DNA of 64,000 nt from Corallococcus sp. EGB. Lineage in GTDB: Bacteria > Myxococcota > Myxococcia > Myxococcales > Myxococcaceae. Shown here piece by piece: positions 14,600 through 43,874 of this stretch. Below the pieces are notes generated by a model that was given only the letters and a program-made list of their open reading frames with translations, made no database searches and was not told the DNA's origin. The position numbers and the translations under genes were made by a program. The stretch lies in the NCBI RefSeq assembly GCF_019968905.1, contig NZ_CP079946.1, forward strand, positions 5,729,356 through 5,793,355, read 5' to 3'. Numbering within the stretch: the first letter of the stretch is position 1; each line of letters opens with the position of its first letter.

Positions 14600-14602
14600 G
14601 GA

Positions 14603-26929: not shown

Positions 26930-28666
26930 CTAGCAGTCCACCGGGCCTTTCAGGCTCGTAACGGTGGCTTCGATTTCTTCACACCCCCCCAGGGTTTTCG
27001 CCCCGTGGGCCGCCAGCTTGATGCCCAGCACGTCCCCCACCACCACGTCCGACATGGAGCGCACCACCACGCCGTCCCGCTGGCGGAACGTCACCGCGTA
27101 CCCGCGCGACATCACCTTCAGGGGGCTCAGGGCGTCCAGGCGGCCGCCCAGCCGGCCGAAGTGCGTCTGCGCGGACGACAGCATGCCCCGCTGGAGTTCC
27201 AGGAGCCGTGCCTGCGCCTGGGCCACCTTCGCCCGCTCGGCCGCCACGCGCGCCGTGGGCGTGGCCCGCTCCAGCCCCAGCCGCGCGTCCGCCAGCGCGC
27301 CCCGCCTCCGGGACACGCCCGCGCGCGCCGCCTCCGACAGGCGCATGGCCAGCTTCAACAGGTGCGCCCGCTGCTCCGACAGCCGCGTCTGGGGCCGCGC
27401 CCGCTGCAGCCGCTCCTGGAGCGCGCGCAGCGTCTCCCGGTGCTCGCGCGTCCGGGGGCGCATCACGCGCATCATCGCCTCCACCTGTTCGGACAGGTGC
27501 AGGCGCTGGTGGTTCACCTCACGGCGGGGGTCGGGCAGCCGTGAGCGCAGCTGGCCCTGGCGCTCGCGCAGCTCCAGCACCCGGCGCTCCATGGCCCGGC
27601 GCAGGCGGCCGGACTGCGTGGCCAGCGTCAGCTCCAGGTCCGCCAGCACCGGCGCCAGCCGCTCCGCCGCCGCGCTGGGCGTGGGCGCGCGCAGGTCCGC
27701 GACGAAGTCCGAGATGGTGAAGTCGATTTCGTGGCCGATGGCGGACACCACCGGCACGGGCGAGGCGAAGATGGCGCGCGCCACCCGCTCCTCGTTGAAC
27801 GTCCAGAGGTCCTCCACGGAGCCTCCGCCGCGCGTCACGACGATGACGTCCACGTCCGTACGCGCGAGCCGCTCGATGGCCCGCGCCACGTCCTCCGCGG
27901 AGCCCTCCCCCTGCACGCGCGCGTCCGCCAGGAGCACGCCCAGCCGGGGGTTGCGCGAGTGCAGCACACGCAGGAAGTCCTGGAGCGCCGCGCCGGTGCG
28001 GCTCGTCACGACGCCGATGCGCCGGGGCAGGAACGGCACGGGCCGGGGCGGCCGCACGCGCCGGTCGCCGATGAGCCCCTCCGCCGCCAGCCGCTGCTTG
28101 AGCTGCTCGAACGCGAGCGCCAGCGCGCCCTCGCCCACCGGCTCCAGCCGGGACACGATGAGGCTGTAGCGGCCCTGCGGCTCGTACAGGTCCACGCTGC
28201 CCTCGGCCAGCACCTCCATGCCGTCGCGCAGCGCGAAGCGGATCCGCGACGCCATGGACGCCCACACCTTCGCGTCGATGGAGGCGTCCGAGTCCTTGAG
28301 CGTGAAGTACCAGTGGCCGCGCGCGTTGGCGCCGCGGAAGCTGGACACCTCGCCGCGCACCAGCACGCGCGGGAAGCGCGACTCCACCGTCTGCTTGATC
28401 TGCCGGGTGAGCTCGCCTACCGACAGCACCGTGCGCTCCGCGCGAGGCGGCGGAGTGACGGTGGCCGGAGGCGCCGGCGTGCTGGCGGCCGGGGGCTCCG
28501 CGGCGATCTCCGCCACCGGCGCGGACGGCGGCGACCTGGGCGGCTTGCTCGCGGCGGCGGCCTTCGGCGGGGCCGGACGCAGGGGAGGCAGGAGCGACGT
28601 GCCGAACAGATCGCCCTGCCCCGGCTCGTCGGCCGGGGGTGATTCGCCCCCCTTGCGCTTCTTCAT
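26930..28666 (-). CDS. xseA: Exodeoxyribonuclease VII large subunit. Start at MKKRKGG; Pro-rich N-terminal linker, then OB-fold
   Basis: OB-fold GEVSSFRGANARGHWYFTLKD; catalytic-region motifs GVVTSRTGAALQDF...VVTRGGGSVEDLW; the track's N-terminal 177 aa are an artefact. Confidence 0.85.
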   Translation of the reverse strand: MKKRKGGESPPADEPGQGDLFGTSLLPPLRPAPPKAAAASKPPRSPPSAPVAEIAAEPPAASTPAPPATVTPPPRAERTVLSVGELTRQIKQTVESRFPRVLVRGEVSSFRGANARGHWYFTLKDSDASIDAKVWASMASRIRFALRDGMEVLAEGSVDLYEPQGRYSLIVSRLEPVGEGALALAFEQLKQRLAAEGLIGDRRVRPPRPVPFLPRRIGVVTSRTGAALQDFLRVLHSRNPRLGVLLADARVQGEGSAEDVARAIERLARTDVDVIVVTRGGGSVEDLWTFNEERVARAIFASPVPVVSAIGHEIDFTISDFVADLRAPTPSAAAERLAPVLADLELTLATQSGRLRRAMERRVLELRERQGQLRSRLPDPRREVNHQRLHLSEQVEAMMRVMRPRTREHRETLRALQERLQRARPQTRLSEQRAHLLKLAMRLSEAARAGVSRRRGALADARLGLERATPTARVAAERAKVAQAQARLLELQRGMLSSAQTHFGRLGGRLDALSPLKVMSRGYAVTFRQRDGVVVRSMSDVVVGDVLGIKLAAHGAKTLGGCEEIEATVTSLKGPVDC

Positions 28667-30414
28667 CGCGACAGCTTCTCGATCCAGCCCTGGGCCTTGC
28701 CGTGCAGCTCGTCGTCCGGCGGCGTCATCGCGACGACGTCGCGGAACTTGGGCAGCGCGTCCTCGGGGCTGGAGTCCTTGATGGAGTAGGCCTGCATGTA
28801 CAGGTCCTTCGCCTTGCCCTTGAGGTCGTTGACGATGTTGGCGGCGCCCGCGTGGGCGGGGTCCGCCTGGAGCGCGCGGCGGGCGAACTCCATGGCGCGC
28901 GACCACTGGCCGGCGGCCTTCGCGCCCGCGGCGCTCTTGTAATAGATGGTCGCCGCGCGGGTGCCCGCGTTGCGCGCCATCTTGCTGCCGCGCCCGTCCG
29001 TGATGTCCTTGTCCAGCGCGAGCAGCCGGGTGAGGCCCTTGGCGTCCAGGTCCTCCAGCTTCTTGTAGAGGTTGCCGAACTCCGTCACCTGCCCCATCAG
29101 CTGCTTGCACTGCGCCGTCTTGGCCGAGCACGCGTTGAGCATGGCCGCCGCGCCGGTGAGGTCGCCGTCGCGGAAGCGGTCCACGGCGGGCTCCCACGGC
29201 TTGGGCGCCGCGGCCACGCGCACGGGGTCCGGACGGGTCATGTCGGCGATGACGCGCGCGGCATCGTCATTGACCAGCTTGCCGTCGCGGTGCTCTGGGA
29301 AGGTCGCCAGCACGTCGTCGGTGATGGCCTTGGCCTTCTGCACGTTCTCCAGCTGGCGGGTGTCCAGCAGCCCCTTGGCCTCCTTCGTGCGCTTGTCGGC
29401 GGCTTCCGCCAGGTTCCTGCGCGCCGCCTTGAGCTGCTCGTAGAGCTGGGTGTCGCTGCTCACCTTCTCGATGGACGCCTTCGCGTTGGCGAGCTCGCCC
29501 TTGGCCAGCGCCGCCTGGGCCGTGGCCAGGTGGCCCTGGTTGGGGATCTCCCGCTCCGCTGCCTTCAGGTAGTCCGCCACGCCGGGGTAGTCCGGCGCCT
29601 GCGCGTTGAGCTCCTCCAGCTTCGCCTTGGCTTGCTGCCACTGGCCCTCGCGCACCAGGTTCTTGGCTTCCTGGAAGAGGCCGCCCAGCTGCTCGCGGTA
29701 CTTGCGCTGCTCGGCCTCGATGCGGCCCTGCTCCTCCTGCTGGTGACGCATGCGCGAGCGCGCGACGCCCAGACCCGCGAAGAGCAGCACCAGCACGGCG
29801 GCGCCCGCGAGCTTGATCCGCATGCGCTTGCGCTGCATCTCCGGCGTGAGCTCCGCGGCCGCGGCGGCGCGCGACGTCTGCGGGCGCGCGCGGCCCTCCC
29901 GGGCGGGGCGCGCGGGCACGGCCACGGCACCGCGAGCACCCGAGGCGGACGGGCGGGGCCGGGGGCTGGAGGGCGCCTGCACCTTGGCGGTGCTGTTGGC
30001 GGTGTCCTCGTAGCGCAGCTCCGAGTCGCCCAGCGTGATGACGTCGCCGTTGGCGAGCAGCGTCTCCTCGGAGATGGGCTCGCCGTTGACGATGGTGCCG
30101 TTGCCGGACCCCATGTCACTGACCATCCAGCCGGCGGACTCCTTGCGCAGCGTCACGTGCTTGCGGGAGACGGACGTGTCCTGGATGCAGATGGGGTTGT
30201 CGGTGGAGCGGCCCACCGTGTACTCGAGCTCGGAGAGCGCGAACTCCTCGCCCTCCATGGGGCCGGCGACGACGACGAGCTTCGCCGGGCGAACCGCGGC
30301 CGCGGAGGCACCGGTCGACCGGCGGACCGGCGCGCGCTGTCCGGTCCCGGAGGAGGGCGTACCTGACGTAGGCCGTCGGCGGGCGGGGGGAGGTGCGTTC
30401 GACATGGAGGTCAC
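28663..30414 (-). CDS. FHA-domain, single-pass inner-membrane protein with a periplasmic TPR/coiled-coil C-terminal region; part of the Tad-like cluster (resembles Kil-system FHA proteins)
   Basis: FHA motif VGRSTDNPICIQDTSVSRKHVTL...SGNGTIVNGEPI; TM helix LAGAAVLVLLFAGLGVA; stop overlaps the xseA start (ATGA). Confidence 0.75.
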   Translation of the reverse strand: MTSMSNAPPPARRRPTSGTPSSGTGQRAPVRRSTGASAAAVRPAKLVVVAGPMEGEEFALSELEYTVGRSTDNPICIQDTSVSRKHVTLRKESAGWMVSDMGSGNGTIVNGEPISEETLLANGDVITLGDSELRYEDTANSTAKVQAPSSPRPRPSASGARGAVAVPARPAREGRARPQTSRAAAAAELTPEMQRKRMRIKLAGAAVLVLLFAGLGVARSRMRHQQEEQGRIEAEQRKYREQLGGLFQEAKNLVREGQWQQAKAKLEELNAQAPDYPGVADYLKAAEREIPNQGHLATAQAALAKGELANAKASIEKVSSDTQLYEQLKAARRNLAEAADKRTKEAKGLLDTRQLENVQKAKAITDDVLATFPEHRDGKLVNDDAARVIADMTRPDPVRVAAAPKPWEPAVDRFRDGDLTGAAAMLNACSAKTAQCKQLMGQVTEFGNLYKKLEDLDAKGLTRLLALDKDITDGRGSKMARNAGTRAATIYYKSAAGAKAAGQWSRAMEFARRALQADPAHAGAANIVNDLKGKAKDLYMQAYSIKDSSPEDALPKFRDVVAMTPPDDELHGKAQGWIEKLSR

Positions 30415-30441: not shown

Positions 30442-33426
30442 TTAAAGCTCGTGCTCATAGGCTTTTTCCAGCGCGAGATTGTGGCAGCGATGCTCGGCCG
30501 TAGGGAAGCGTCTCCGCACGTCTTCCAAGGTGGCGACCGCGTCCCGTCGGCTTCGGAACTGAACCGCCCGCTGGAACTGCATCATCAGCTGGCTGCAGCG
30601 GTGGTCCAGCTCCATTGAAATCTGGGCGATCCGCTCCCGGACGTCGTCGTACAGCTCCGGCTTCTCGTCGAGCGCTTCCAGGGTGATCCACGCGGCCCGG
30701 TAGTCCCGCCACGACTTGAACAGGTTCTCCGCGCCCACATCCTTGAGCTCGTAGAAGCGGGCCCCGGACTTCGCCAGCTCCCGGGCGGAAGCGACCAACT
30801 GGTCGGGTGGCAGCTCGGGCACCGGGATGATCTCCAGGCGCAGGTTCCAGATGCGCCAGGGGTCATGGCCGGGCGGGTTGAGGGCGTTGTCGAAGAGGAG
30901 CTGGTTGTTGGCGTTGCGGCGCAGGAGGCTGGGGGGGAGGACGTGCTCCAGTTCGCGCTCGGCGGTCTGCGCCGTGTCTGGAGGCACCCAGCCCAGGGAC
31001 ACGCCGTTGAGGGACAGGTTGACCTCGTCCCGGGCGATGTCGCTGGCCTGATAGTGCAGCACCGCCACCGCGCGGGTCGGGGACACGAAGCGGAAGTCGA
31101 AGAGCTTGTCGTCGGCGTGGACCCAGCGCACGCCCTGGCCCAGGCCGAAGGAGTCCGGTACCGGATCCATGCCCAGCGTGAAGGGCTCGCGTCCCGGGAG
31201 GCGGATGGCGGTCGGCATCGCGAGCGCCGCGAGCAGCGTCACCCCCGCCAGCACCACCACCGCCGACACCGACACGAAGGCGATGCGCTTGGGCAGTGAC
31301 TGGCGCTGCCAGAAGAGCTGGAACTGGCCAGCGAGCGACTTGCCCAACTGACGCCGCTTGCGCGCCTTGTCCGCGGCGGACGAGGGCTCGACCTTCGCGA
31401 CGACCGTCACCGGGCCGTTGGGCACGAGCTGGATGGACGGGTCCTCCCGGTCGGGCGGGAGCGGCTGGGTGCCTTCGCCCTCCCCGTCCGCGGAGGGCGT
31501 GGGTGCCAGCAAGGGGGCCGCGCCCGGCGGCGGGCCGGGGTCCAGCGCCGGAGGAGGCACGGCGTGCTGCCGGCGGCCCACCTGCGTCACCGGCTCCGGC
31601 GGAGGCGGCGGGACGGGAGCGAGCCGGGCCTGCGGTGCCTCCGGAACCGCCGCGGCGGCGATGGGCGGTTCCTGGCCCGCGAAGGTCCCCGAGGCACGGG
31701 TCTCCTCGGGAGCCGCATCGACGTCATGGTCCTGGCCGACGAAGGTCGCGGGCTCGCGGGAGTCCGACGGGGGTGCGGCCGGTGCCGCGCTCGCGACACG
31801 CACCGGCGGGGACACGAGCGGGCTGACCGGGGTGATGGGCCGGAGGTCGAGGACCGTGCGCTCCTCGGGCTCCTCCATCGTCGGAGGGGGCAGCGCAAAC
31901 GCGTCGTCCCGTGGCGGCGGCGCGTCCACCGGAGGTGGCGCTTCCGGGGTCGCCTGAATCGCCATCAGCGTGCGCTCTTCAGGCTCCTCCAGGGCCGGCG
32001 CGGAGAGCGCGGACACGGCCTCGTGCGATGGCACTCCCCCCGGAGGCGGCGCTGCCGGGGTCGCCTGAATCGCCATCAGCGTGCGCTCCTCCGGCTCGTC
32101 CATCACCGCGATGGGCAGCTCGGGGGCCGGCACGGAGACGGGCCCAGGCGAATCCACGGTGGGAATCGCCATCAGCGTGCGTTCCTCCGGTTCCTCCGGC
32201 ACCACGGGCGCCAGGTCATTGGAGGGCGGCGTGACGGGAGGGCGCGCCGGGGGTGGCGGAGCCATGAGCCCCGGCGGCGTCATCAACGGAAGGCCGGACC
32301 CGGAGGAGGCCCCAACGCCTGGTGCCGTGGACGCACGCGAGGCGCCGCGATCCGGCGAAGGCCGGTTCGGTCCCGGCGTGCCAACACCGGGCGGGCTCGA
32401 GACACCATTCCGCTTCGCGGAAACAGGCTCCGTCGAGGCAGGAGCGCCCACCGCCGGAAGCTCCAGCGCCGTGATGTGGGCGGGCTCCACGGCAAGCGTG
32501 GCCGGCGCGTCCAACACGGGAGGGCGGCCGGCCCCCGAGCCATTGATCGCTGGCAGTCCCGGCCCGGAGGCCCTGACAGGGGTGGATGCTCCCGGAGCCT
32601 TGTTCACCGGCGAGGCGCTGCCCACGACAGGTCCCGCGGGCGCCTTGGCCGGCGAACCCGCGGGAGGAGCGGCAGCCCCCAACACCGGTGGCCCCGCGGG
32701 AGTTCTGGACGGCGCGCTCGCGGAAGGCCCCGAGGACGCCAACACCGGAGGCGAGCCGGGGACCTTGCCCGCGGCAGACGCTCCGGACGCGGAGCCCCCC
32801 AGCACCGGAGGGGGCCTGACCGGCGCGGTCCCCAACGCGGGAGCCCGCAGCACCGGAGGACTCCTGCCCGGAGTGGCAGCCCCCAGGACCGGGGGCACCG
32901 GTGGAGCCTTGACTGGCGTGGGGCCCCCCACCGCGGGCAGATCTGGAGCAGAGGGGCGCTTCGGTGGAGTCACCGCCGCCGGCATCACGGGCGTGGGCAC
33001 TGCCTTCCCTGAGGGCACGGTGGCGGCGGGACGCGGCGGAGAAGCGGGCCTCGCCATGGCTGGCATCGACTGCTGGTAGCTCGTGGGCGCCGCTTCGATC
33101 TCCGCGAGCGACGCCTGCTCCACGCCCTGCGGCGACACCTTCGCGTGCGGCGGCGCGAGCACCCGCCGGATGGGCCGGGTGACGTCGTCGTCCCCGTCCG
33201 GCGGCATCCACACGAAGGTGAACTCCACCGGCCCCACGGTGATGCGGTCCCCGTCGCGCAGCTGCTTCTCACCGCTCAGCAGCTGGCCGTTGAGGTGCGT
33301 GCCGTTCGCGCTGCCTACGTCCTCGGCGAAATAGCGCCCATCCCTCGCGGTGATGCGCGCATGACGACGGGAGACACCGTGGTCATGCAGCACCAGGTCG
33401 TTCTCCGAGGTCCGGCCGATCTTCAC
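30442..33426 (-). CDS. Large FHA-domain membrane protein (994 aa): N-terminal FHA, about 600 aa Pro/Ala-rich disordered region with four EEPEERTLMAI-type repeats, one TM helix, and a roughly 270 aa periplasmic C-terminal domain
   Basis: FHA motif IGRTSENDLVLHDHGVSRRHARI...SANGTHLNG; TM helix IAFVSVSAVVVLAGVTLLAALA. Confidence 0.75.
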   Translation of the reverse strand: MKIGRTSENDLVLHDHGVSRRHARITARDGRYFAEDVGSANGTHLNGQLLSGEKQLRDGDRITVGPVEFTFVWMPPDGDDDVTRPIRRVLAPPHAKVSPQGVEQASLAEIEAAPTSYQQSMPAMARPASPPRPAATVPSGKAVPTPVMPAAVTPPKRPSAPDLPAVGGPTPVKAPPVPPVLGAATPGRSPPVLRAPALGTAPVRPPPVLGGSASGASAAGKVPGSPPVLASSGPSASAPSRTPAGPPVLGAAAPPAGSPAKAPAGPVVGSASPVNKAPGASTPVRASGPGLPAINGSGAGRPPVLDAPATLAVEPAHITALELPAVGAPASTEPVSAKRNGVSSPPGVGTPGPNRPSPDRGASRASTAPGVGASSGSGLPLMTPPGLMAPPPPARPPVTPPSNDLAPVVPEEPEERTLMAIPTVDSPGPVSVPAPELPIAVMDEPEERTLMAIQATPAAPPPGGVPSHEAVSALSAPALEEPEERTLMAIQATPEAPPPVDAPPPRDDAFALPPPTMEEPEERTVLDLRPITPVSPLVSPPVRVASAAPAAPPSDSREPATFVGQDHDVDAAPEETRASGTFAGQEPPIAAAAVPEAPQARLAPVPPPPPEPVTQVGRRQHAVPPPALDPGPPPGAAPLLAPTPSADGEGEGTQPLPPDREDPSIQLVPNGPVTVVAKVEPSSAADKARKRRQLGKSLAGQFQLFWQRQSLPKRIAFVSVSAVVVLAGVTLLAALAMPTAIRLPGREPFTLGMDPVPDSFGLGQGVRWVHADDKLFDFRFVSPTRAVAVLHYQASDIARDEVNLSLNGVSLGWVPPDTAQTAERELEHVLPPSLLRRNANNQLLFDNALNPPGHDPWRIWNLRLEIIPVPELPPDQLVASARELAKSGARFYELKDVGAENLFKSWRDYRAAWITLEALDEKPELYDDVRERIAQISMELDHRCSQLMMQFQRAVQFRSRRDAVATLEDVRRRFPTAEHRCHNLALEKAYEHEL
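31880..32215 (-). repeat. Imperfect tandem repeats of about 100 bp inside the large FHA gene, encoding four (D/E)EPEERT(L/V)(M/L)AI peptide repeats
   Basis: DNA motif gaatcgccatcagcgtgcgctc(c/t)tc(a/c)ggctc(c/g)tcc recurs three times with 95-105 bp spacing; approximate coordinates. Confidence 0.6.
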
Positions 33427-33499
33427 TTCGGCCTGCTCGAAGGCGAGCTCCCGTCCGACCTGGAGCCCCTGGGTGATGGTGAGCAGGATGGGCAGAGGA

Positions 33500-34387
33500 C
33501 TAGCCCCCGACGTTGCCGAACATGAACTGGAACACGATGGGCCCGAAGAGCACCATGAACACCGTCGGGAAGATGCAGGCGATCAGCGGGAACAGCATCT
33601 TCACCGGGGCCTCGCCGGCCAGCTTCTCCGCGCGCTGCGTGCGGTCGATGCGCATCTGCGTGGACTGGATGCGCAGCACCTTGCCCAGGCTCGTGCCCAT
33701 CTTGTCCGCCTGGATCAGCGCCGTGACGAACGTCGTCAGCGACGGCAGGTCCACGCGCATGATCATGCTCTTCAAGGCCTCTTCGCGCGTCTTGCCCATC
33801 TTGAGCTGCTTGAGCACCAGCTGCAGCTCCTCGCGCAGCGGACCCTGGCGGCCCTTCTCCACCACCTTCGCCAGCGCGCCCGTGAAGTCCATGCCCGCTT
33901 CCACCGACAGCGTCAGCAGGTCCAGGTTGTACGGGAGCGCGCGGCTGATGGCCAGGTGACGGCGCTTCACCTGATCGTTCAACCAGATGAGCGGATAGAA
34001 CAGGCCCAGGAGCATCACCAGCAGCGACCACGCCAGGTTCGCGCCAATGCCGTTGACGACGAACAGGCCGGCGAGCAACGCGAAGAACGCGCTCACCTCC
34101 TGCAACGCCATGATGTCCTCGGGCTTGTACTGCGACGGCTCGCCCGCCTTGATCAGCTTGCGGCGCGTCTTGGACTCGTAGCTCGGCCACATGAAGCGCC
34201 GGTTCATCGCGCCCAGCTTGCGGACGGCGACGGAGCCCGCGCCCTTCATGCCGCCAGCGGACTCGTCCCGCACCTCCGTGAGGAAGCGCTCCAGGACGTT
34301 GGTGTACAGGCCGATGCCCAGGAACGCCACCGCGCCCGCGGTCAGCAGTACCGAGCCGCCCATCAGCAGAGATGTCAGGACTTCCAC
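33500..34387 (-). CDS. Tad/type II secretion system F-family inner-membrane platform protein (TadC-like)
   Basis: T2SSF-domain polytopic membrane protein; pairs with the following TadB-like gene. Confidence 0.8.
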   Translation of the reverse strand: MEVLTSLLMGGSVLLTAGAVAFLGIGLYTNVLERFLTEVRDESAGGMKGAGSVAVRKLGAMNRRFMWPSYESKTRRKLIKAGEPSQYKPEDIMALQEVSAFFALLAGLFVVNGIGANLAWSLLVMLLGLFYPLIWLNDQVKRRHLAISRALPYNLDLLTLSVEAGMDFTGALAKVVEKGRQGPLREELQLVLKQLKMGKTREEALKSMIMRVDLPSLTTFVTALIQADKMGTSLGKVLRIQSTQMRIDRTQRAEKLAGEAPVKMLFPLIACIFPTVFMVLFGPIVFQFMFGNVGG

Positions 34388-34400: not shown

Positions 34401-35246
34401 TCAGATGTCGATGTTGACGATGCGGCGGATGATGAGGATGCCCATGATCTCCATGATGGCGATCAGGGTCACCAGGATGTAGCCGAAGATGTGGTTCATC
34501 ATCGGCTCCATCAGGTCCGGACGCATGTAGTTGAGCACCATGCCCAGCACCGCCGGCATGGCCGCGACGATCCACCCCTGAAGCTTGCCCTGGGACGTCA
34601 GCGCGTCGATCTTGCCTTCCAGACGGAAGCGCTCGCGGATCACCGTGGAGATGGTCTCGAACATCTCCGCCATGTTGCCGCCCAGCTGGCGCGCGATGTT
34701 GGTGGACACCACCACCAGCTCCAGGTCGTCGCTGCCCACGCGGCGGCCCATGTTGATGAGCGCCTCCTCCAGCGGCACGCCCAGCTTCACTTCCTTCACG
34801 AAGAGGCCGAACTCCTGGGACAGGGGCGGCATCGCCTCGCGCGCCACGTGCTCGATGGCCTGCGGGAACGTGAGGCCGGCCTTGAACGCGTTGGCCATGG
34901 CCTGCAGCGCGTCCACCAGCTGCACGTTGAACTTCTTGATGCGGCGCTTGCGGTAGTGCTTCACGAGCAGCATCGGCAGGAAGAAGCCGAAGATGGTCGC
35001 CAGCACCGCCAGGATGGGGTTGAAGACGATGTAGCTGAGGATGCCCAGGAGGCACATGCAGGCGATGTTGAGGATCAACATCTGCCGCGCGTCGATGAAG
35101 AGGAACATGTCGCTCAAGTCGTTCATCGACTTGGCGACGTACCGCTCCTGGTACTGCTCATACGCCTTCGACAGGACGCTGAAGATCACCAGGCTGAAGA
35201 AGAAGACCGAGCCGGTGACGAGAAGGAGGACGATACCTGCGAGCAT
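34401..35246 (-). CDS. Tad/type II secretion system F-family inner-membrane platform protein (TadB-like)
   Basis: T2SSF-domain; ...AFKAGLTFPQAIEHVAREAMPPLSQEF... is typical of TadB. Confidence 0.8.
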   Translation of the reverse strand: MLAGIVLLLVTGSVFFFSLVIFSVLSKAYEQYQERYVAKSMNDLSDMFLFIDARQMLILNIACMCLLGILSYIVFNPILAVLATIFGFFLPMLLVKHYRKRRIKKFNVQLVDALQAMANAFKAGLTFPQAIEHVAREAMPPLSQEFGLFVKEVKLGVPLEEALINMGRRVGSDDLELVVVSTNIARQLGGNMAEMFETISTVIRERFRLEGKIDALTSQGKLQGWIVAAMPAVLGMVLNYMRPDLMEPMMNHIFGYILVTLIAIMEIMGILIIRRIVNIDI

Positions 35247-35322: not shown

Positions 35323-36138
35323 CTACGGAGTGCCGGCCGAGGCCTTCTCGCCGCCGCCGCCCCGGATGACCGTGATGATCTCCCGGCGCTTCTGCTCCAG
35401 CACGCGGGTGCGCTCACCGGAGAGCAGCGTGCTGATGGTGGCGCGGCCACGCTCCTCGATGAGGTCCACGTCGTCCTCGTTGCGCAGGGACAGCGTCAGG
35501 TTGCCGAGCTCCGCCGCCAGCACGAGGATCTCCGCCTCTTCCGGCAGCACCATCAGCGAGACGTTGCTGTACTCGCGCTGGTTCTCCGGGATGAGGTTGA
35601 TGTTCGTGGTACCGGTGATCTTGCCCGTGGCCACGACGATGATGTTCTGCAGCAGCGTCACCGCGACGCTCTCGTCCGTCTGCGGATCGCGGAACGTGCC
35701 GATGATGTCCACGTGGTCGTTCGGGCGGATCCACCCGCCCACCGCGGTGGTCTGCTTCGCCTCGATGGTGATGGCGCGCGCCTTCTTCTGCACCTTCGTG
35801 GACAGGCGCTCGGCGGCCTTCGTGGTCTCGAACTGGCTCCAGAGGATGGGGTCGCCGGCCTGCAGCGCCACCAGCACCTTCTGGTTCACGATGTAGTTGG
35901 CGGAGTCCGGCTTCACCACCGACGAGGTGACGAACTGCTCCGGCACGGAGCGCTGGGAGATCATCTCATACGTGATGACCGAGCCCTCGGGCATGTCCTG
36001 CCCCGCCACCACCACGGGAACCAGGTTCCACCCGCGGCGCACATCGGCTTCCTTCTTCTTGATGGCCGAGTAGGCCACGATGCCCGCGAGCAAACCGAGC
36101 ACCAGTGCGACGACGAGTGGGGTCTTACCCTTCAACAT
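35323..36138 (-). CDS. cpaB: Flp pilus assembly protein CpaB/RcpC family (periplasmic, N-terminal TM anchor, SAF domain)
   Basis: N-terminal TM helix LVVALVLGLLAGIVAY, then the CpaB N- and C-terminal domains. Confidence 0.75.
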   Translation of the reverse strand: MLKGKTPLVVALVLGLLAGIVAYSAIKKKEADVRRGWNLVPVVVAGQDMPEGSVITYEMISQRSVPEQFVTSSVVKPDSANYIVNQKVLVALQAGDPILWSQFETTKAAERLSTKVQKKARAITIEAKQTTAVGGWIRPNDHVDIIGTFRDPQTDESVAVTLLQNIIVVATGKITGTTNINLIPENQREYSNVSLMVLPEEAEILVLAAELGNLTLSLRNEDDVDLIEERGRATISTLLSGERTRVLEQKRREIITVIRGGGGEKASAGTP

Positions 36139-36228: not shown

Positions 36229-36370
36229 ATGTTAGCCATGCACCGCTGCGGGTGTCAAAACCACCTCTCGTGACAAAGCGGAATCCCGGGACCTCCGGCA
36301 CTCGCGGGGCCTGCCCACCCGGCTGGGAGGACGGCGCGACACACGAGCGGATCCGCGACCCTGGCGTCCC

Positions 36371-36655
36371 TCAGGGGAACGGCAGGTTCAGCACGAAGTA
36401 GAACGAGTCGTAATAAATCTGGTACGCCTCGAGGAACAGGTCGATGACGTTGGACTGCTTGTCTTCGTTCCAGCGGATCTTCACCGTGGCGCCGATGACG
36501 AGCCCGACGATCAACACCCAGTTGATCATCGAGTACTCCACCATGGCCTGGCCACGGCGGGCCCGGCGCGGCGGCGACTTCCGGGGGCTGTTCACGGGGG
36601 GAGCGTGCACGATGCCCCCATTATCCAGCACCGGGGCCCTGGACGCATCGGTCAT
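36371..36655 (-). CDS. Candidate Flp/Fap-family type IVb prepilin: 37-aa basic leader, G/QAMVEY processing motif, hydrophobic helix. Could alternatively start at the internal Met as a 57-aa product
   Basis: ...RRARRGQAMVEYSMINWVLIVGLVIGATV... matches the Flp G-XXXX-EY motif followed by a hydrophobic helix; GC3 is clearly lower than in neighbouring genes (att, tat, aat, gaa codons); sits between the anti-sigma gene and cpaB. Confidence 0.55.
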   Translation of the reverse strand: MTDASRAPVLDNGGIVHAPPVNSPRKSPPRRARRGQAMVEYSMINWVLIVGLVIGATVKIRWNEDKQSNVIDLFLEAYQIYYDSFYFVLNLPFP

Positions 36656-36673: not shown

Positions 36674-38074
36674 CTACTGCGCGGGCTGGGCGGGGGCCGC
36701 CTTGGACGGAGCCGCGGGGGGCGTGGCCTGACGCAGGCGGCGCTGGGCCAGCTGGGCCGCGCTGGAGTCCGGGGCCTCGGAGATGATCTGCCCGCAGACG
36801 GCGGCGGCCTCCCGGGTCCGGCCCTGGACGGACTCGGACTCACAGAGGCGGGAGAGCAGCGCCAACCGCTCGCTGCCGTTGGCTCCAGCCGCGAGCGCGG
36901 CGCGCAGCAGCCGGGCCTCGCTGGCACGGTCGCCCCGCTCCGCGGCGGCCTGGGCCTGGGCGGACAGATCGCGCGCCGTCATCGCCTTGTCGGAGGCGGC
37001 CTTCCCCACGGGCACGGGCTTCGCGGTCGACGCCCGGGGGGACGCGGGCTCCGGGGGCGCGGCCCCGCCAATGGAGCCCGGGGTGCCGGGGGCCATGGTC
37101 ACGGACTGGGCCTGGGGCGCGGCGGCCGCAGGAGGCGGCGGCGACGCGGAAGCGCTCGCGCCCCCCTCGTCCGCGTCGTCCGCGGCGAGCCCCCGGCCAT
37201 AGGCCTTCGCGCCCAACCGCAGCGAGTCGTCCTTCGCGGCCAGCGCGGTGTCCGCGCCTGCCGCCGTCGCACGCCGCGGCGCGGGGACGACCTTTCCGGC
37301 CAGGTAGCCGTCGGACTTCTCTTCCTTCAGCGATGAAGCCATCTCCGCTGGCAGAGCCCCCGCGGCCGGTTCGAGCGGCGCGAACTCGTTGTCCGCGTCG
37401 CGGACGGCCTTGGCCACCTTCTTCTTCGGGGCGTCGTCGTACGAGCGGCGCCGCTCCAGGAGCGCGCCGCCGCTGCCCGCGTTCATCCAGTCCGACGGAC
37501 GGGCCGCGCCCTTGAGCTCCGCCTCCGCCTGATTCCGGTCGAACTTCTCATCCATCGGCGCGGGTGAGACGGCCGCCAGCGCATCCGCGGCGCCCTCGGA
37601 GGAAGCCTCCTTCACGGCAGTGGGGGCAGGCGCCATCGTCGCGGTCGGCTGGCGCTTGTCCCACTCCTCCGCCTTCGCCGCGACCGGAGCGGCCTTCTGC
37701 GACAGGTTCGGCTCCAGCTGGAGGTTCTGGCTGATGGTCAGCGAGAGGAGGCCGAAGGTGCTCACCATGGCCACGCCCACCGCAGGCAGCAGCCAGCGGC
37801 GCCAGCGCGAGGGCTTCGGCTCGGGCCCCGCGGCGGCGCGGCGCGCGGCCTGCTCCGCGTACGCGAGCAGCGACTCCAGGCCCGCGTCCGGCGCGGGTTC
37901 GGCCGACAGCTGCGCCATGGTGGTGCGCACGCCGCGGATGTCCGCCAGCGCCTTCGTGCAGCGCGCACAGCCCTGGACGTGCTGCTCCAGCACCTGGGCT
38001 TCCGACGCGGGCAGCTCGCCGTAGGCGAAGTCGAGGAGCCGGTCCTCGTGCGCATGGACATTCTGGGCACTCAT
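36674..38074 (-). CDS. Anti-sigma factor: N-terminal zinc-binding ZAS-like domain, TM helix, Ala/Pro-rich periplasmic region with C-terminal TPR
   Basis: HVQGCARCTKAL (HxxxCxxC) anti-sigma motif; TM helix WLLPAVGVAMVSTFGLLSLTI; start overlaps the ECF sigma stop. Confidence 0.7.
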   Translation of the reverse strand: MSAQNVHAHEDRLLDFAYGELPASEAQVLEQHVQGCARCTKALADIRGVRTTMAQLSAEPAPDAGLESLLAYAEQAARRAAAGPEPKPSRWRRWLLPAVGVAMVSTFGLLSLTISQNLQLEPNLSQKAAPVAAKAEEWDKRQPTATMAPAPTAVKEASSEGAADALAAVSPAPMDEKFDRNQAEAELKGAARPSDWMNAGSGGALLERRRSYDDAPKKKVAKAVRDADNEFAPLEPAAGALPAEMASSLKEEKSDGYLAGKVVPAPRRATAAGADTALAAKDDSLRLGAKAYGRGLAADDADEGGASASASPPPPAAAAPQAQSVTMAPGTPGSIGGAAPPEPASPRASTAKPVPVGKAASDKAMTARDLSAQAQAAAERGDRASEARLLRAALAAGANGSERLALLSRLCESESVQGRTREAAAVCGQIISEAPDSSAAQLAQRRLRQATPPAAPSKAAPAQPAQ

Positions 38075-38718
38075 CCCGCCACCGTCCTTCCATCCTCCGA
38101 CAGGTCGCCGTCCACGCCCAGCTCTCCCAGGCGGCGGCGCAGGCCCTCCAGCGCGTAGCGCATCCGGCTCTTCACCGTGTTCTCGGACACGCCCGTCACC
38201 TCGGCGATCTCCTTGAACGGGATGCCGCTGTACTCGCGCAGCACGAACACCTCGCGCTGTTCCTCCGGAAGGGCCCCGAGGGCCCGCTCCAACAGGGGCC
38301 GGAGCCGGGCGTTGTGCGCCCCGCGCTCCGGGCTGGCCCCGGCATCCGGCAGCCCCTCGCCCAGCGGACGTCCCTCGTCGCCGTCGGCACCCGCCGAGGG
38401 GGCTTCCAGGGACGTCGCCTGGCGGTAGCTCTCTTTGCGGGTGCTGTCCACGCAGAGGTTCCTCGCGATGGTGTACAGCCAGGTCGTGAACCGGGCCTTG
38501 GGCTCGTATTCCCGGGCGCTGCGGACGACCTTGAGCCAGGTCTCCTGCAGCACGTCCTCCGCCCGCGCCCGGTGCCCCACGAAGCGCAGGATGAAGTTGA
38601 ACACCGGCGCGCGGTGCTTGCGTACCAACGCTTCGAACGCGCGCGCGTCTCCCGCCTGGAAGGCGAGCATCAGCTGCTCGTCTGAGGTTTCGGGTGCCAA
38701 ACTTCCCCCAGTGCCCAT
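38071..38718 (-). CDS. ECF (sigma-70 family, RpoE-like) sigma factor. Start at MGTGGSLAPETSDEQLMLAFQAGD
   Basis: Region 2 (VFNFILRFVGHRARAEDVLQETWLKV) and region 4 (FKEIAEVTGVSENTVKSRMRYALEGLR) motifs. Confidence 0.8.
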   Translation of the reverse strand: MGTGGSLAPETSDEQLMLAFQAGDARAFEALVRKHRAPVFNFILRFVGHRARAEDVLQETWLKVVRSAREYEPKARFTTWLYTIARNLCVDSTRKESYRQATSLEAPSAGADGDEGRPLGEGLPDAGASPERGAHNARLRPLLERALGALPEEQREVFVLREYSGIPFKEIAEVTGVSENTVKSRMRYALEGLRRRLGELGVDGDLSEDGRTVAG

Positions 38719-38782
38719 GAAGCCACGGGTGCCATCCCCTTCACCGCCCACGGCCTGTAACGGACAGCCGCGCGCGAAAGGT

Positions 38783-39274
38783 CTATTCCGGCCGTGGCCG
38801 CCGGTAAGTGGCGAGAATGACAGGGACGGCAACCGCTGTCACCAGAAGTGCCTGCGCCAGCAGCACCGCCGGTAGCGGGCGCTGCACATGGACGTACAGC
38901 GAGCGGCCAAGAGCCAGCCCCAGCAGGACGCCCGTCAACGTGCGCACCGCGTTGGAACCGGAAGCGGGCCGGAAGCGTCCCACCGCCCAGTCCCCGAGCG
39001 CGGGCAGCGTGAGCGCCAGCACCACCGGCACGTCCCACTCCCACTGGAGCGGCGCCTTCAGCGCGAACAGCCCGACGAAGACGGCGGCGAGCACCGGGTA
39101 CGTGCCCAGGCACCGCGCGCACACGCGCGCGCCCGCGAGCAGGTACGTGCGGTTGTACTCATCCGCGTGATGATGGCTGAGCCAGAACACCGGCACCTCC
39201 TCCGGACGCGGAAACAGCGGGCCCGTGCTGCATGTCGCGCGAATCCCCTTCGGCCAGGAAGCACGCCGCGGCAT
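38783..39274 (-). CDS. DUF2085-like membrane protein (Cys-rich CxxC); start uncertain
   Basis: [10 protein letters not shown] motif plus three or four TM helices; the track ORF (to 39331) and even the MPRRASW start overlap the 3' end of the upstream ABC ATPase gene. Confidence 0.45.
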
Positions 39275-40210
39275 GGCCTCCCCCCAGGGGATACAGCGGC
39301 GGTGATTCAAGGCGGCAGCGCTCCATCGCATGCGGGCAGCGCGGATGGAAGGCGCAGCCGGACGGCGGAGACAGGGGCGAAGGCGGCTCGCCCGGCAGGA
39401 GCAGCCGGGCCCGGGGACGCTCCGGATCCGGCACCGGCACCGCGGACAGCAGGGCCTGCGTGTACGGATGGCGGGGACCTGCGTACAGCGCCCGCGACGG
39501 CGCGACCTCCACGATGCGGCCCAGGTACATCACCGCCACGCGCGTGGACACGTACTCCACGATCTTCAGGTCGTGCGCGATGAAGACGTAGGTCAGCCCG
39601 CGCTCGCGCTGCAGGTCCACCAGCAGGTTGACGATCTGCGCCTGGATGGAGACGTCCAGCGCGCTGATGGGCTCGTCCGCCACCACCAGGTCCGGACGCA
39701 ACGCGATGGCACGTGCGATGCCGATGCGTTGACGCTGGCCTCCGGAGAACTCGTGCGGGTAGCGGTGCCGCGCCTCGCGGGGCAGCCCCATGGCGTCGAG
39801 CAGCGCCAGCACCTCGTCCTCGCGAGCCTTGCCCTTCGCGAGCCCGTGGATGGCGAAGGGCTCCGCGAGGATGTCGCCCACCATCATGCGCGGGTTGAGC
39901 GATGCGTACGGGTCCTGGAAGACGAGCTGCATCTGCCGGCGCAGCGGGCGCAGCTCGCGCTGGGACAGCCCGGTCAGCTCGCGCCCGGCCACGCGGATGG
40001 AGCCGGAGGTCGGGTCGAGGAGGCGCAGCACCGCGCGCCCCAGGGTGCTCTTGCCGCAGCCGCTCTCCCCCACCAGGCCCAGCGTCTCGCCCCGGGCGAC
40101 GTCGAAGGACACGCCGTCCACCGCGCGCACCGTGCCGCGCGTTCGCCCCAGCCACCCGCCCTTCACCGGGAAGTGGACCTTGAGGTCGCGCACCTGGACC
40201 AGGGGTTCGC

Positions 40211-40214
<4 letters not shown>
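39159..40214 (-). CDS. Oligopeptide/dipeptide-type ABC transporter ATP-binding protein (OppF/DppF-like). Start at [11 protein letters not shown]; no cognate permease or binding protein nearby
   Basis: Walker [10 protein letters not shown], signature [14 protein letters not shown], Walker B LVVADEP, C-terminal oligopeptide-ABC domain (HPYTQALL...CAFHPRCP); the 3' end may be shorter than the ORF. Confidence 0.75.
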
Positions 40215-41232
<1,018 letters not shown>

Positions 41233-41236
<4 letters not shown>

Positions 41237-42225: not shown

Positions 42226-42234
42226 GGCCGGGGG

Positions 42235-42984
42235 CTACCGCTTGACCTTGGCGAGGTATTCCTCGCGAGAGAAAACGCCCTTCTCGATGAGCAGCTCCAC
42301 CATGGCCTTCAGCGCCGCGACCTCCTTGCGCTGGACCTCCTCCACGCTCTTGAGCAGCTCCGCGGGGCTTCCGGACGCCGCGCGGGGCGCCTCCTGCGGA
42401 GGCGCCTGACGGGGCGGCGGCGCGGCGGCGGGCTTGGGGGACATGGCCACCGCGGCGGCCGGGTCCAGGTCCTTGAGGTTCTTCACGACGGTGCGGCCCT
42501 GCGCGTCCACCACCTTGAAGTTGGTGTCCGCGTCCTCCAGCTCCGCCGTCTCCTCGTAGAGGCGCGCGAACGCCCGCGCCACGGAGGTGCGCCCCGCCAC
42601 GTTGGCCACGATGCGGCACTTGGACAGGGCCCGCAGCTCGTCCAGCACGCGCACGTTGAGCGGGTCCGACATGGCGACCACCAGCGTCTTGCCGTCGTCG
42701 CGCAGCTGCAGCGGCACGACAGAGAAGTCGCGGGCCGTCTGCGCCGGAATCTTGGCCTTCACGTGCGGCGGCACCATCTGCACGGAGTCCAGGTTCACCG
42801 CCGGCATGCCGAGCTGCTTCGACAGGGCGCGCACGAGGATGTCCTCGGAGACGAGGTTCATCCGGACGAGGATCTCGCCCAGCTTCCCGCCCCACTTGGC
42901 CTGCTCGGCGAGCGCCGCCTTGAGCTGGCTCTCCTGCAGGACGTTTGCCTTGATCAGCAGTTCTCCAAGCTTGATCTGTGCCAT
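42235..42984 (-). CDS. Standalone T2SSE_N/MshEN-domain protein. Start at MAQIKLGELLIKANVL
   Basis: Motifs KLGELLIKANVLQESQLKAALAEQ and KLGEILVRMNLVSEDILVRALSKQ (G10 replaced by N); no ATPase domain. Confidence 0.7.
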   Translation of the reverse strand: MAQIKLGELLIKANVLQESQLKAALAEQAKWGGKLGEILVRMNLVSEDILVRALSKQLGMPAVNLDSVQMVPPHVKAKIPAQTARDFSVVPLQLRDDGKTLVVAMSDPLNVRVLDELRALSKCRIVANVAGRTSVARAFARLYEETAELEDADTNFKVVDAQGRTVVKNLKDLDPAAAVAMSPKPAAAPPPRQAPPQEAPRAASGSPAELLKSVEEVQRKEVAALKAMVELLIEKGVFSREEYLAKVKR

Positions 42985-43043
42985 GTCGTGCGCGCCATAG
43001 TACCCGGTTTGAGCCGGGGCGCTTCCTTTCAACGCCTGGAAGC

Positions 43044-43874
43044 TCAGGAACCCGGCGCGGGGGGCGGCTGAGACACCGGCCCCTCCGAGTGGACCTCCTG
43101 GCCCCGCGCGTCGACGTTCACCACCTTCGCCCCCTCGGGAGCGGCCAGCTCGTAGAGCGACAGGTCCGGCCGGCCGTTGAGGCGGATGTCGGTGTATTTC
43201 AGGTCCAGCTTCGTGTCCGCCGAGGCGGCGATGAGGTGCACCTTGTCCGGAAAGAACAGATCTCCGCGCTGCTGGAAGTCCTCGAACGCCAGATCATAGC
43301 CCGGCACGCCCCGGACCTCGCTCTTCACCACGCGCAGGTGCTTGGGGTCCACGCGCAGTGTCTGCGTGGCGGGTCCCCGCTGGAGCTTGAGCACGTACAC
43401 CCGCTCCTTCTCGTCCAACTCCAGGGTCATGGACTCCGGGGGCAGCAGGGGGACCTGGCCCAGCATCACCGCGACCAGCTCCTCGCTCGGCAGGACGACG
43501 GGCAGGAAGCGGGACACGTTCTCCGCGCTCGCCGGGCCCTGGAGGTACGTGTTCTCCCGCGCCTGGTAGACGCCGAAGCGCTCGCCGTCGGAGATGAGCG
43601 AGGCCACCGGGCGGTTGAAGAAGTCGAACGTCTCCAGGTGGATGTACGCCGGGCGGGTGATGGAGAGGAAGGTGGAGAGCGTTCCGCTGCCCTGGGGGGA
43701 GTCCACGTGCAGCTTGGCGTCGCCCTCCAGGTTCACCACCTTCGCCTGCCGCTCGCGCACGTGCTGGTAGAGCGTCTGGGCGTCCTCGATGCGGCCCTCC
43801 GGACCGAACTCGAGGCGTTTGGGGCAGGCAGAACAGAGGAGGGCCAGGAAGATTGCGGCGGCTGCGCGGTTCAT
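43044..43874 (-). CDS. Outer-membrane lipoprotein, LolB-like/DUF4292 family
   Basis: Signal peptide with lipobox LLCSACP; LolB-like beta-barrel length and pattern. Confidence 0.6.
   Translation of the reverse strand: MNRAAAAIFLALLCSACPKRLEFGPEGRIEDAQTLYQHVRERQAKVVNLEGDAKLHVDSPQGSGTLSTFLSITRPAYIHLETFDFFNRPVASLISDGERFGVYQARENTYLQGPASAENVSRFLPVVLPSEELVAVMLGQVPLLPPESMTLELDEKERVYVLKLQRGPATQTLRVDPKHLRVVKSEVRGVPGYDLAFEDFQQRGDLFFPDKVHLIAASADTKLDLKYTDIRLNGRPDLSLYELAAPEGAKVVNVDARGQEVHSEGPVSQPPPAPGS

Follow-up and report, generated by a model that had tools for sequence, protein, structure and literature searches.

Gene calling by GC3 frame analysis and translation, with domains assigned by Pfam and NCBIfam, yielded 14 genes between positions 28663 and 43874 of the window (the whole 64-kb stretch of Corallococcus DNA that was analysed), all of them on the minus strand (Table 1); an initial annotation made from the DNA letters had likewise given 14 co-directional genes. 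The domain calls of that annotation were upheld throughout and included: two single-pass FHA membrane proteins (Pfam FHA in both and one hydrophobic segment each, as in the anti-sigma factor), platform proteins with a T2SSF domain and a CpaB protein (the latter also recognized by TIGR03177), a tiny Flp-like pilin ORF (motif G/QAMVEY), here identified as KilK, and an ECF sigma/anti-sigma pair (Sigma70_r2/Sigma70_r4_2 and zf-HC2). A 229-aa ORF at 42206-42895 was discarded as an off-frame artefact. Scans of the region with Rfam and for tRNAs gave no matches, and intrinsic terminators did not occur above chance. Within the window the cluster has the flanks expected beside MXAN_4648 (bacNOP-padC, dxs, ispA, xseAB), which other genera conserve as well, and the same-strand run continues beyond position 28663 with xseA, xseB, a response regulator gene, ispA and dxs.

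Table 1. Genes and predicted cis-elements of the locus, in window coordinates.
Feature	Position	Strand	Size and evidence
FHA - single TM - periplasmic helical/TPR protein, orthologue of MXAN_4648	28663..30414	-	583 aa
Large FHA protein, orthologue of MXAN_4649	30442..33495	-	Pfam FHA
KilH, TadC/CpaH-like inner-membrane platform protein	33500..34387	-	295 aa; one T2SSF, 2.1e-19 (Pfam)
KilG, TadB/CpaG-like inner-membrane platform protein	34401..35246	-	281 aa; one T2SSF, 1.6e-17 (Pfam)
KilB (CpaB/RcpC)	35323..36138	-	271 aa; Pfam RcpC 8.9e-23 and SAF
Predicted sigma-70-like promoter, TTGACA-N18-TAACAT	36229..36258	-	about 90 nt upstream of kilB; motif-based
KilK, Flp-type adapter prepilin, orthologue of MXAN_4655	36371..36655	-	RRG/QAMVEYS motif, then hydrophobic helix
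zf-HC2 transmembrane anti-sigma factor, orthologue of MXAN_4661	36674..38074	-	466 aa; zf-HC2 3.8e-06
ECF sigma factor	38071..38718	-	about 215 aa from internal ATG; Sigma70_r2 and Sigma70_r4_2
Putative cis-regulatory block before the sigma gene	38759..38841	-	conserved; motif-based
DUF2085 membrane protein	38783..39331	-	Pfam DUF2085 8.3e-08
OppF/OppD-type ABC ATPases, two	39159-40292, 40211-41236	-	ABC_tran and oligo_HPY in both
Stand-alone MshEN (GspE N-terminal) proteins, two	41233-42225, 42235-43032	-	MshEN 1.8e-11 and 4.3e-15; no ATPase domain
DUF4292, LolB-like lipoprotein	43044..43874	-	Pfam DUF4292 7.3e-15, above threshold

The part of the locus between 28663 and 38841 very probably represents the Corallococcus orthologue of Kil cluster II of Myxococcus xanthus (estimated probability about 0.88, from sequence comparison). 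By position, the genes encoding the FHA+TPR protein, the second FHA protein, KilH, KilG, KilB, KilK, the anti-sigma factor and the ECF sigma factor are the orthologues of that cluster plus its sigma factor. Their order (FHA_TPR, FHA, KilH, KilG, KilB ... KilK ... anti-sigma, sigma), together with the adjoining xseA, recurs in loci of Myxococcus, Pyxidicoccus, Citreicoccus, Hyalangium, Archangium and Cystobacter. The likeness to M. xanthus covers the same genes, order and flanks, with the ECF sigma gene upstream, xseA downstream and a system split over the genome, and the gene content published for MXAN_4648-4661 (PMC8460266, supplementary file 18) matches the locus. The affinity to the genus is close, with KilB 96-97% identical to that of Corallococcus species and a nucleotide identity of 93.6% between the locus as a whole and Corallococcus sp. 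RDP092CA. The resemblance to the Kil apparatus that had been noted earlier was therefore borne out and strengthened by orthology and synteny: on sequence grounds this is an orthologous, syntenic Kil cluster II, more than a merely Kil-like one, and accordingly a known system met again in Corallococcus and no new machine. Contact-dependent prey killing by Kil has been demonstrated in M. xanthus only (Seef et al. 2021, PMC8460266; Herrou et al. 2025, PMC12075869), and a function in killing, the roles of the subunits and the arrangement in operons would be carried over to Corallococcus by orthology; at the locus itself we established orthology, domain content, synteny and conserved cis-elements.

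The genes kilH, kilG and kilB are adjacent and ordered as in M. xanthus AM003, where the proteins at the same positions are 82, 96 and 91% identical, respectively (tblastn), and KilB passes the NCBIfam CpaB model TIGR03177 with 192.8 bits (cutoff 71). The kilK ORF has no Pfam match. Its product is 72% identical to that of a 75-aa Myxococcus gene located third upstream of KilB, which corresponds to MXAN_4655 by gene count, the numbering being anchored by MXAN_4659 (89% identity to a 695-aa gene of locus L036). Conservation of the KilK motif extends over 62 loci, and the roles of KilK, KilP and Tip4 have been published (PMC12075869).

The MXAN_4648 orthologue is 61-63% identical to the Myxococcus protein at the matching position, shows matches to Pfam FHA (5.9e-19), Yop-YscD_cpl (1.8e-19) and, weakly, TPR, has its single TM at residues 200-218 and keeps the phosphothreonine-binding residues GR...SxxH...NG. 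The large FHA protein, a positional orthologue with 56-57% identity over the C-terminal 300 aa, is composed of an FHA domain, a Pro-rich linker, a TM, a periplasmic beta-sandwich and TPR-like helices, and is about twice as long here as MXAN_4649 because of a Pro-rich insertion of about 500 aa with EEPEERTLMAI repeats. Its canonical ORF (30442-33426) encodes 994 aa and the first canonical start truncates the FHA domain; the probable real start is the CTG at 33495, where the conserved frame begins (about 1017 aa). The layout of a cytoplasmic FHA domain (Yop-YscD_cpl match), one TM and then a domain in the periplasm is shared with SctD/YscD/PrgH of type III and TagH/Fha of type VI secretion systems. 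The difference lies in the periplasmic part of the large protein, which models as a CBM/BcsB-like beta-sandwich followed by TPR-like helices, whereas type III SctD has ring-building motifs. The published HHpred link between MXAN_4649 and PrgH, when tested on the periplasmic domain, revealed no ring-building-motif fold, and the NCBIfam models for SctD, TagH and GltG scored far below their cutoffs on the FHA proteins. The literature searched contained no published phenotype for MXAN_4648, MXAN_4649 or the sigma/anti-sigma pair.

The cluster includes the ECF sigma/anti-sigma pair as a stable component. The sigma factor, whose longest ORF extends to 38832, scores 269 bits against NCBIfam PRK12513 (cutoff 206), and the anti-sigma factor has its TM at residues 96-114. 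The start of the anti-sigma gene overlaps the sigma stop by 4 nt and only 18 nt separate its own stop from the start of kilK; the pair is probably co-transcribed with kilK. The putative block before the sigma gene contains an inverted repeat, TGACAG-N12-CTGTCA (38818-38841), and the element TAGACC-N17-CGTT (38759-38785), both of which occur once in the window. Within 1.35 Mb of related loci, 42 of 43 occurrences of the repeat and 45 of 48 matches to TAGAYC-N15-19-CGTT are located immediately before the sigma orthologue, and the block persists where other genes stand in for DUF2085. A search for the sigma-promoter motif before kilB, kilM4 and the FHA genes gave no match in the window and just three stray ones elsewhere in the 1.35 Mb; the motif thus gives no direct indication that the platform genes are under the control of this sigma factor. 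The kilB-kilG-kilH-FHA-FHA genes have a conserved predicted sigma-70-type promoter of their own, which matches 10 of 12 consensus positions, is the sole such site in the 26.5-45.5 kb interval and belongs to a block (TTTGACAC...TA.CATC) whose conservation spans all lineages, with 19 loci aligned.

The cluster is smaller than that of M. xanthus, where eight small genes separate KilB from the anti-sigma factor (PMC8460266, supplementary file 18). Only kilK is kept in Corallococcus; MXAN_4653, 4654, 4656 and 4657 and Tip4 (KilL4/N4/M4), whose Myxococcus genes encode TadE/TadG-like minor pilins with TadE/Tad Pfam domains, were all seven absent from the window and from 12 of 12 Corallococcus-type loci (tblastn). 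Compared to Myxococcus sp. Y35, about 6.0 kb and about 1.65 kb are missing on either side of kilK. A tblastn match to MXAN_4654 downstream of kilK (E = 6e-9), which might have been a remnant of that gene, proved to consist mostly of the conserved 3' end of kilK translated out of frame, and was dismissed as a deletion scar. Among the best 120 of 210 KilN4 matches, some of them named, no named one belongs to a true Corallococcus, from which we infer that Tip4 may have been lost from the whole Corallococcus genome. The earlier claim that gene count and order match the second Kil cluster did not stand: with seven published genes missing here, the agreement of 14 with 14 is a coincidence, and the count reached 14 because the sigma, DUF2085, two ABC ATPase, two MshEN and DUF4292 genes, all outside the published cluster, had been added.

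The statement that motor and outer-membrane parts are absent proved correct for the window ORFs scanned with Pfam, among which there was no CpaF-type ATPase, secretin, prepilin peptidase or TadZ; likewise, the KilA peptidase, KilC secretin, KilF FHA-ATPase, KilD, the KilP major pilin and the other Tip clusters do not occur in the 64-kb window. The predicted second locus agrees with the published split architecture of Kil: the C. coralloides gene indices are 4689-4692 for KilA/C/F/D and 4609-4611 for KilH/G/B (Herrou et al., Supplementary Data 1, PMC12075869), a distance of about 80 genes.

The six genes from DUF2085 to DUF4292 complete the run of 14. Where an Opp/Dpp importer comprises two permeases and a family-5 binding protein, the window holds just the two ATPases; neither BPD_transp nor SBP_bac_5 was found among the scanned ORFs, which agrees with the annotated OppD/OppF pair without permease or binding protein. 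Both MshEN proteins also conform to their description as stand-alone. They carry two tandem 24-residue [RK]LGxxLLxx.. motifs each and, with the Pfam MshEN domain and the LGxxLLxx..L pattern, partly resemble c-di-GMP receptors of the MshE/GspE type, but differ from MshE/GspE-type ATPases in having no ATPase domain. Compared to RLGxxLLxxGLLxxxxLxxxLxxQ, Lys replaces the first Arg in 4 of 4 copies, and the protein encoded at 42235-43032 has Asn for the central Gly of the motif. The MshEN orthologue of M. xanthus DK1622 is 86% identical, and a homologue search for more distant contexts gave only matches of at least 71% identity among the best 120. The NCBI name of the MshEN proteins is 'GspE'. The DUF4292 gene probably has a housekeeping function.

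Readings of the locus diverge on whether these six genes take part in the machine. The initial annotation had treated all 14 genes as one mosaic apparatus. Spelled out, such a reading would make the OppD/F-like ATPases, DUF2085, the LolB-like lipoprotein and the MshEN proteins, the last as sensors of c-di-GMP, dedicated parts of Kil for energising, regulation or outer-membrane insertion. The genes are indeed co-directional with short gaps or overlaps, MshEN domains usually occur in type IV filament ATPases and both proteins have tandem c-di-GMP-type motifs, and the order MshEN-MshEN-ABC-ABC-DUF2085-sigma-anti-sigma-Kil is syntenic in 33 assessable loci, including deep lineages at 40-60% protein identity (40-50% for the ABC proteins). 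Synteny is weak evidence here, however, because the housekeeping gene xseA is equally syntenic with the cluster and even overlaps the last FHA gene. Moreover, nine related loci, from Vitiosangium and the Archangium gephyra group, have unrelated genes in place of the DUF2085-DUF4292 block, with unrelated ORFs standing immediately before the sigma promoter block where DUF2085 would be. In these loci the sigma/anti-sigma pair remains and the rest of the cluster is intact; because of this replacement the six genes are probably not machine parts. The sigma gene and kilB each have their own conserved promoter-like block, DUF4292 resembles general lipoprotein insertases of the LolB1 type, with a score below the cutoff (NCBIfam LolB1_Flavo, 43.2 bits, cutoff 50), and the six genes lie outside the published cluster, with no literature found on MXAN_4662-4667. 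A single apparatus of 14 genes is therefore unsupported and we consider it unlikely; on the comparison of loci, the six genes are probably conserved neighbours.

The TadB-like, TadC-like, CpaB and Flp-motif genes constitute a standard Tad core, and the single-T2SSF platforms (TadB/CpaG, TadC/CpaH), CpaB/RcpC and a Flp prepilin with G/XXXXEY are shared with the classical Tad/Flp pili (Aggregatibacter tad, Caulobacter cpa), as would suit an ordinary adhesive pilus for surface attachment without a killing device. Such a pilus is nevertheless very improbable, as the locus is orthologous by position to a Kil cluster that has been characterised by experiment, with 82-96% identity and identical flanks. 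In contrast to classical tad loci, which encode TadA/CpaF, RcpA/CpaC, TadV/CpaA and TadZ/CpaE in cis, it has none of these among the window ORFs scanned, and it has KilK, two Kil-specific FHA membrane proteins and an embedded ECF sigma/anti-sigma pair; according to the literature (PMC12075869) the Flp protein here is an adapter and the major pilin is another protein. Membership of a type II secretion system or type IVa pilus, in which T2SSF and MshEN domains also occur and to which the name 'GspE' would point, can be given next to no credence: the platform proteins, of 281-295 aa with a single T2SSF each, are of the TadB/TadC type, the CpaB equivalog model is passed, the pilin has the Flp motif G/XXXXEY, and no GspE/PilB ATPase domain, GspD/PilQ or pseudopilin was present among the window ORFs scanned. 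The domain content refutes this reading, and the exclusion of both systems and the T2SSF and CpaB assignments, on which the earlier interpretation had staked itself, stand.

As Kil cluster II, the locus would provide the inner-membrane and periplasmic part of a Tad-like Kil pilus for contact-dependent prey killing. KilG and KilH would form the TadB/TadC-type platform, KilB (CpaB) would link it to the secretin, and KilK would act as the Flp adapter pilin that couples the minor-pilin tip complexes to the KilP filament. The genes for the KilF ATPase, KilC secretin, KilA peptidase, KilD, KilP and the tip complexes would lie at other places in the genome. The bitopic FHA proteins may be accessory scaffold or signalling subunits, each with a cytoplasmic phosphothreonine-binding FHA and a periplasmic TPR-like domain, the larger also with a CBM-like beta-sandwich. 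A more speculative extension, which we regard as rather doubtful, would have the sigma pair as a dedicated switch for tip/adapter genes, the FHA proteins coupling a glycan or cell-wall module to phosphothreonine signalling, and Corallococcus possessing a Tip4-less minimal cluster. The bitopic zf-HC2 anti-sigma factor, with a periplasmic TPR-like end, would sense an envelope or prey-contact signal, and the released sigma factor would drive its own operon from TAGACC-N17-CGTT, controlled by the TGACAG-N12-CTGTCA operator; this operon would reach kilK in Corallococcus and Tip4 plus kilK in Myxococcus, with the platform genes on a constitutive sigma-70-type promoter. The CBM-like sandwich could then bind glycan or cell wall in the periplasm, and phosphothreonine signalling could recruit the FHA-ATPase KilF.

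The value of the locus is comparative, in that it sorts the constant, the optional and the merely adjacent parts of Kil cluster II. The sigma/anti-sigma pair, kilK, kilB, kilG, kilH and the FHA+TPR protein are constant, and Tip4, the four genes that accompany it and the second FHA protein are optional. DUF2085, both ABC ATPases, both MshEN proteins and the LolB-like gene are probably adjacent only. The new details are a candidate sigma-70-like promoter of kilB and a candidate operator/promoter block of the sigma gene, both motif-based, and the modelled CBM-like and TPR-like domain of the large FHA protein. The two predicted regulatory elements and the fold that was modelled with confidence for the periplasmic domain in MXAN_4649-family proteins provide three handles on uncharacterised components of the Kil system.

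The G+C content of the window is about 71%, so that raw ORF lists abound in artefacts; a combination of third-position GC, frame analysis and translation recovered 14 genuine genes on the (-) strand between 28663 and 43874 (see table). Across kilG and kilB (34001-36000) the G+C content drops to 65% (GC2 0.34-0.45, GC3 0.92-0.96), which suits hydrophobic membrane proteins and not foreign DNA. The domains named in the initial annotation were all found back with Pfam and NCBIfam, and its observation as a whole was confirmed. The genes encoded: two proteins with an FHA domain, two with a single T2SSF domain each, a CpaB protein (above the TIGR03177 cutoff), an anti-sigma factor with a zf-HC2 domain, an ECF sigma factor (above the PRK12513 cutoff), a DUF2085 protein, two ATPases with ABC_tran and oligo_HPY domains, two proteins with MshEN as the sole domain and a DUF4292 protein (slightly below the LolB1 cutoff). 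The 94-aa ORF gave no Pfam match; it has RRG/QAMVEYS and, directly after it, a hydrophobic helix, together the signature of a Flp prepilin, in line with its earlier description as Flp-like pilin. A single transmembrane segment is present in each of the two FHA proteins and in the anti-sigma factor, and both FHA domains retain the phosphothreonine-binding residues GR...SxxH...NG. Pfam scans of the window recovered no CpaF-type ATPase, secretin, prepilin peptidase or TadZ, and no Opp permease or Opp binding protein, as had been noted before for the pilus motor and outer-membrane parts and for the partners of the ATPase pair.

Features of the Kil locus and its surroundings (window positions)
Feature	Position	Strand	Remarks
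tRNA-Gly(GCC)	4888-5068	-	two identical tandem genes
Bactofilins and ParB-N	12532-15379	-	three tandem bactofilin genes, then a ParB-N-domain gene; the bacNOP-padC arrangement of M. xanthus
Signalling gene	18121-20715	-	GAF hybrid histidine kinase with GGDEF fragment
FHA+TPR	28663-30414	-	MXAN_4648 orthologue
Large FHA protein	30442-33426	-	994-aa ORF, MXAN_4649 orthologue
KilH	33500-34387	-	
KilG	34401-35246	-	
KilB	35323-36138	-	
Putative sigma-70-type promoter	36229-36258	-	TTGACA-N18-TAACAT, upstream of kilB
KilK	36371-36655	-	94-aa ORF
Anti-sigma factor	36674-38074	-	
ECF sigma factor	38071-38718	-	
Sigma upstream block	38759-38841	-	palindrome TGACAG-N12-CTGTCA, then TAGACC-N17-CGTT, upstream of the ECF sigma gene
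Neighbour block	38783-43874	-	DUF2085, ABC, ABC, MshEN, MshEN, DUF4292
ExbB/ExbD pair	43917-45119	+	divergent from the DUF4292 gene, start codons ~42 nt apart
Signalling gene	49566-50786	+	response regulator with HD-GYP-type HD_5 domain, possible c-di-GMP phosphodiesterase
Signalling gene	62223-63998	+	CheA, continues past the window end

We collected related loci by scanning with KilB, one genome per species (80 loci), and established synteny by comparing every window protein with them in tblastn. The best KilB matches came from Corallococcus species (96-97% identity; M. xanthus 91%), and the nearest locus at the DNA level was that of Corallococcus sp. RDP092CA (93.6% over ~20 kb). The order sigma, anti-sigma, ..., KilK, ..., KilB, KilG, KilH, FHA, FHA+TPR, xseA is common to Corallococcus, Citreicoccus, Myxococcus, Pyxidicoccus, Hyalangium, Archangium and Cystobacter. 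Kil cluster II of M. xanthus was defined by Seef et al. 2021 (PMC8460266, supplementary file 18) as MXAN_4648-4661: FHA+TPR (4648), FHA (4649), KilH (4650), KilG (4651), KilB (4652), unknown (4653-4654 and 4656-4657), KilK (4655), KilL (4658), TadG-like (4659), KilM (4660) and zinc finger (4661). Gene calling in two Myxococcus loci recovered exactly this series, and the numbering is anchored by a 695-aa gene that shares 89% identity with MXAN_4659 of DK1622; the 94-aa ORF of the window, 72% identical to MXAN_4655, is therefore its counterpart, KilK. The flanks of the window (three bactofilins and a ParB-like gene, a TPR protein, a hybrid kinase, dxs, ispA and xseB/xseA) are consistent with the M. 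xanthus neighbourhood directly below MXAN_4648. The locus, for which a resemblance to Kil was suspected from the sequence, is thus the orthologue of the published Kil system and more than a look-alike. A table of Kil orthologues that covers C. coralloides, where cluster I lies ~80 genes away from KilH/G/B, has already been published (Herrou Supplementary Data 1, PMC12075869). Some Archangiaceae MAGs contain two KilB paralogues, each ~80% identical to KilB, that are adjacent in the loci L051 (9119-10801) and L060 (4952-6570) and ~2.8 kb apart in L074 (6407-10801); the ECF sigma gene upstream of these paralogues is a different one (27% identity), and there is no kilG/kilH close by. The same assemblies also hold a normal cluster II (L026, L025, L028), an apparent co-occurrence that may reflect assembly mixing.

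The distance from the sigma gene to kilB is ~9.4 kb in Myxococcus versus ~2 kb in the window and in all Corallococcus-type loci (12/12). MXAN_4653, 4654, 4656, 4657, KilL4, KilN4 and KilM4, the last three with TadE/Tad domains in Myxococcus, had no counterpart anywhere in the window, and the match of 14 genes to the M. xanthus cluster that was put forward in the initial annotation was a coincidence of two different gene sets. According to the DNA alignment the absent segments flank kilK on both sides: ~6.0 kb from the anti-sigma stop to kilK, and ~1.65 kb from kilK to the conserved kilB leader. Tip4, which is made up of KilL4/M4/N4, is one of four pilus tips that are interchangeable, the major pilin is KilP (mxan_5121) and not KilK, and KilK is the adapter of Tips 1, 2 and 4 (Herrou et al. 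2025, PMC12075869), so that retention of kilK upon loss of Tip4 makes functional sense. The named KilN4 homologues among the best 120 of 210 matches belong to Myxococcus, Pyxidicoccus, Hyalangium, Aggregicoccus, Melittangium, Archangium, Cystobacter and Vitiosangium, and the sole 'Corallococcus' named among these 120 is 'C. macrosporus', with a 9.0-Mb Myxococcus-like genome. These best 120 of 210 matches suggest that Tip4 was lost from Corallococcus and not relocated. The block is also absent from deeper-branching MAG lineages, which have just one FHA gene; as Corallococcus is nested among genera that carry the block, secondary loss is the parsimonious reading.

Whether the upstream genes are members or bystanders of the cluster can be weighed from synteny. 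The order MshEN-MshEN-ABC-ABC-DUF2085-sigma-anti-sigma-Kil-xseA is held even where the ABC proteins are just 40-50% identical, yet this is weak evidence for membership because the housekeeping gene xseA is equally syntenic. In nine loci (Archangium gephyra group, Vitiosangium) unrelated ORFs stand where DUF2085 would be, immediately upstream of the sigma gene, with unaltered sigma, anti-sigma and Kil genes. The DUF4292 protein is similar to the general lipoprotein insertase LolB1 (NCBIfam), and a search of one literature library returned no functional literature on MXAN_4662-4667 or the FHA genes. We read the genes from DUF2085 through DUF4292 as neighbours of the Kil cluster.

Across the family, the nucleotide sequence of the block ahead of the sigma gene is conserved, and the block is retained both within DUF2085 coding sequence and in non-coding DNA. 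Each of its two motifs occurs once in the window, and within the 1.35 Mb of loci 45 of the 48 matches to the second motif lie at most 150 nt from a sigma start. The invariant half-sites and variable spacer favour a protein operator over an RNA hairpin; an Rfam search of the region found nothing. In Cystobacter fuscus (L053) the DUF2085-internal copy is degenerate, and another copy, which is intact, is present downstream. The element upstream of kilB is the only sigma-70-type site within 19 kb and is kept in all lineages aligned. We read the cluster as two transcription units: sigma-anti-sigma-kilK and kilB-kilG-kilH-FHA-FHA.

The start of the 994-aa ORF falls within its FHA domain, and upstream of the FHA core (33427-33495, -) there is no ATG, GTG or TTG. 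The upstream frame encodes the conserved N-terminal strands 'PILLTITQGLQVGRELAFEQAEV' from a CTG at 33495, and Citreicoccus shares this CTG with 8/8 Corallococcus loci, with GTG at the corresponding position in Myxococcus. Given this conservation and correspondence, translation likely starts at the non-canonical CTG, and automatic annotation would cut short the FHA domain. The C-terminal 295 residues have ~100 homologues among 5.8 billion proteins, all myxobacterial and mostly 450-516 aa, which implies a ~500-aa Pro-rich insertion in the Corallococcus protein. Confined to this insertion are three or four 'EEPEERTLMAI' repeats (residues 411-530; three strict regex matches to 'EEPEERT', at residues 411, 480 and 518, and a fourth, variant copy). 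The cytoplasmic linker of the window's protein, in which these repeats lie, also has one 'DDDVTRPIRR' (residues ~76-88), and other genera have one or two copies of 'DATRPIR' just past the FHA domain, duplicated in the Myxococcus orthologues. These threonine motifs are possible phosphothreonine ligands of the FHA domains. In eight loci, L053 (Cystobacter fuscus) and L056, L058, L061, L067, L071, L073 and L080, including several deep-branching MAG lineages, the FHA+TPR gene alone follows kilH and the MXAN_4649-type gene is absent, so that some copies of cluster II do without the second FHA protein.

By orthology with M. xanthus, for which the roles have been described (Seef 2021; Herrou 2025), the FHA-ATPase KilF would drive polymerisation of KilP through the KilC secretin on a platform made of KilG and KilH, KilB would span the periplasm as a bridge and KilK would be the adapter for the tip complex. 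The FHA proteins may serve as scaffold or in phosphothreonine signalling, and the sigma/anti-sigma pair may control kilK and the tip genes. The cluster is a known system, to which its Tip4-less layout, its cis-elements and the periplasmic fold of the large FHA protein add useful detail without making it a new type of system.
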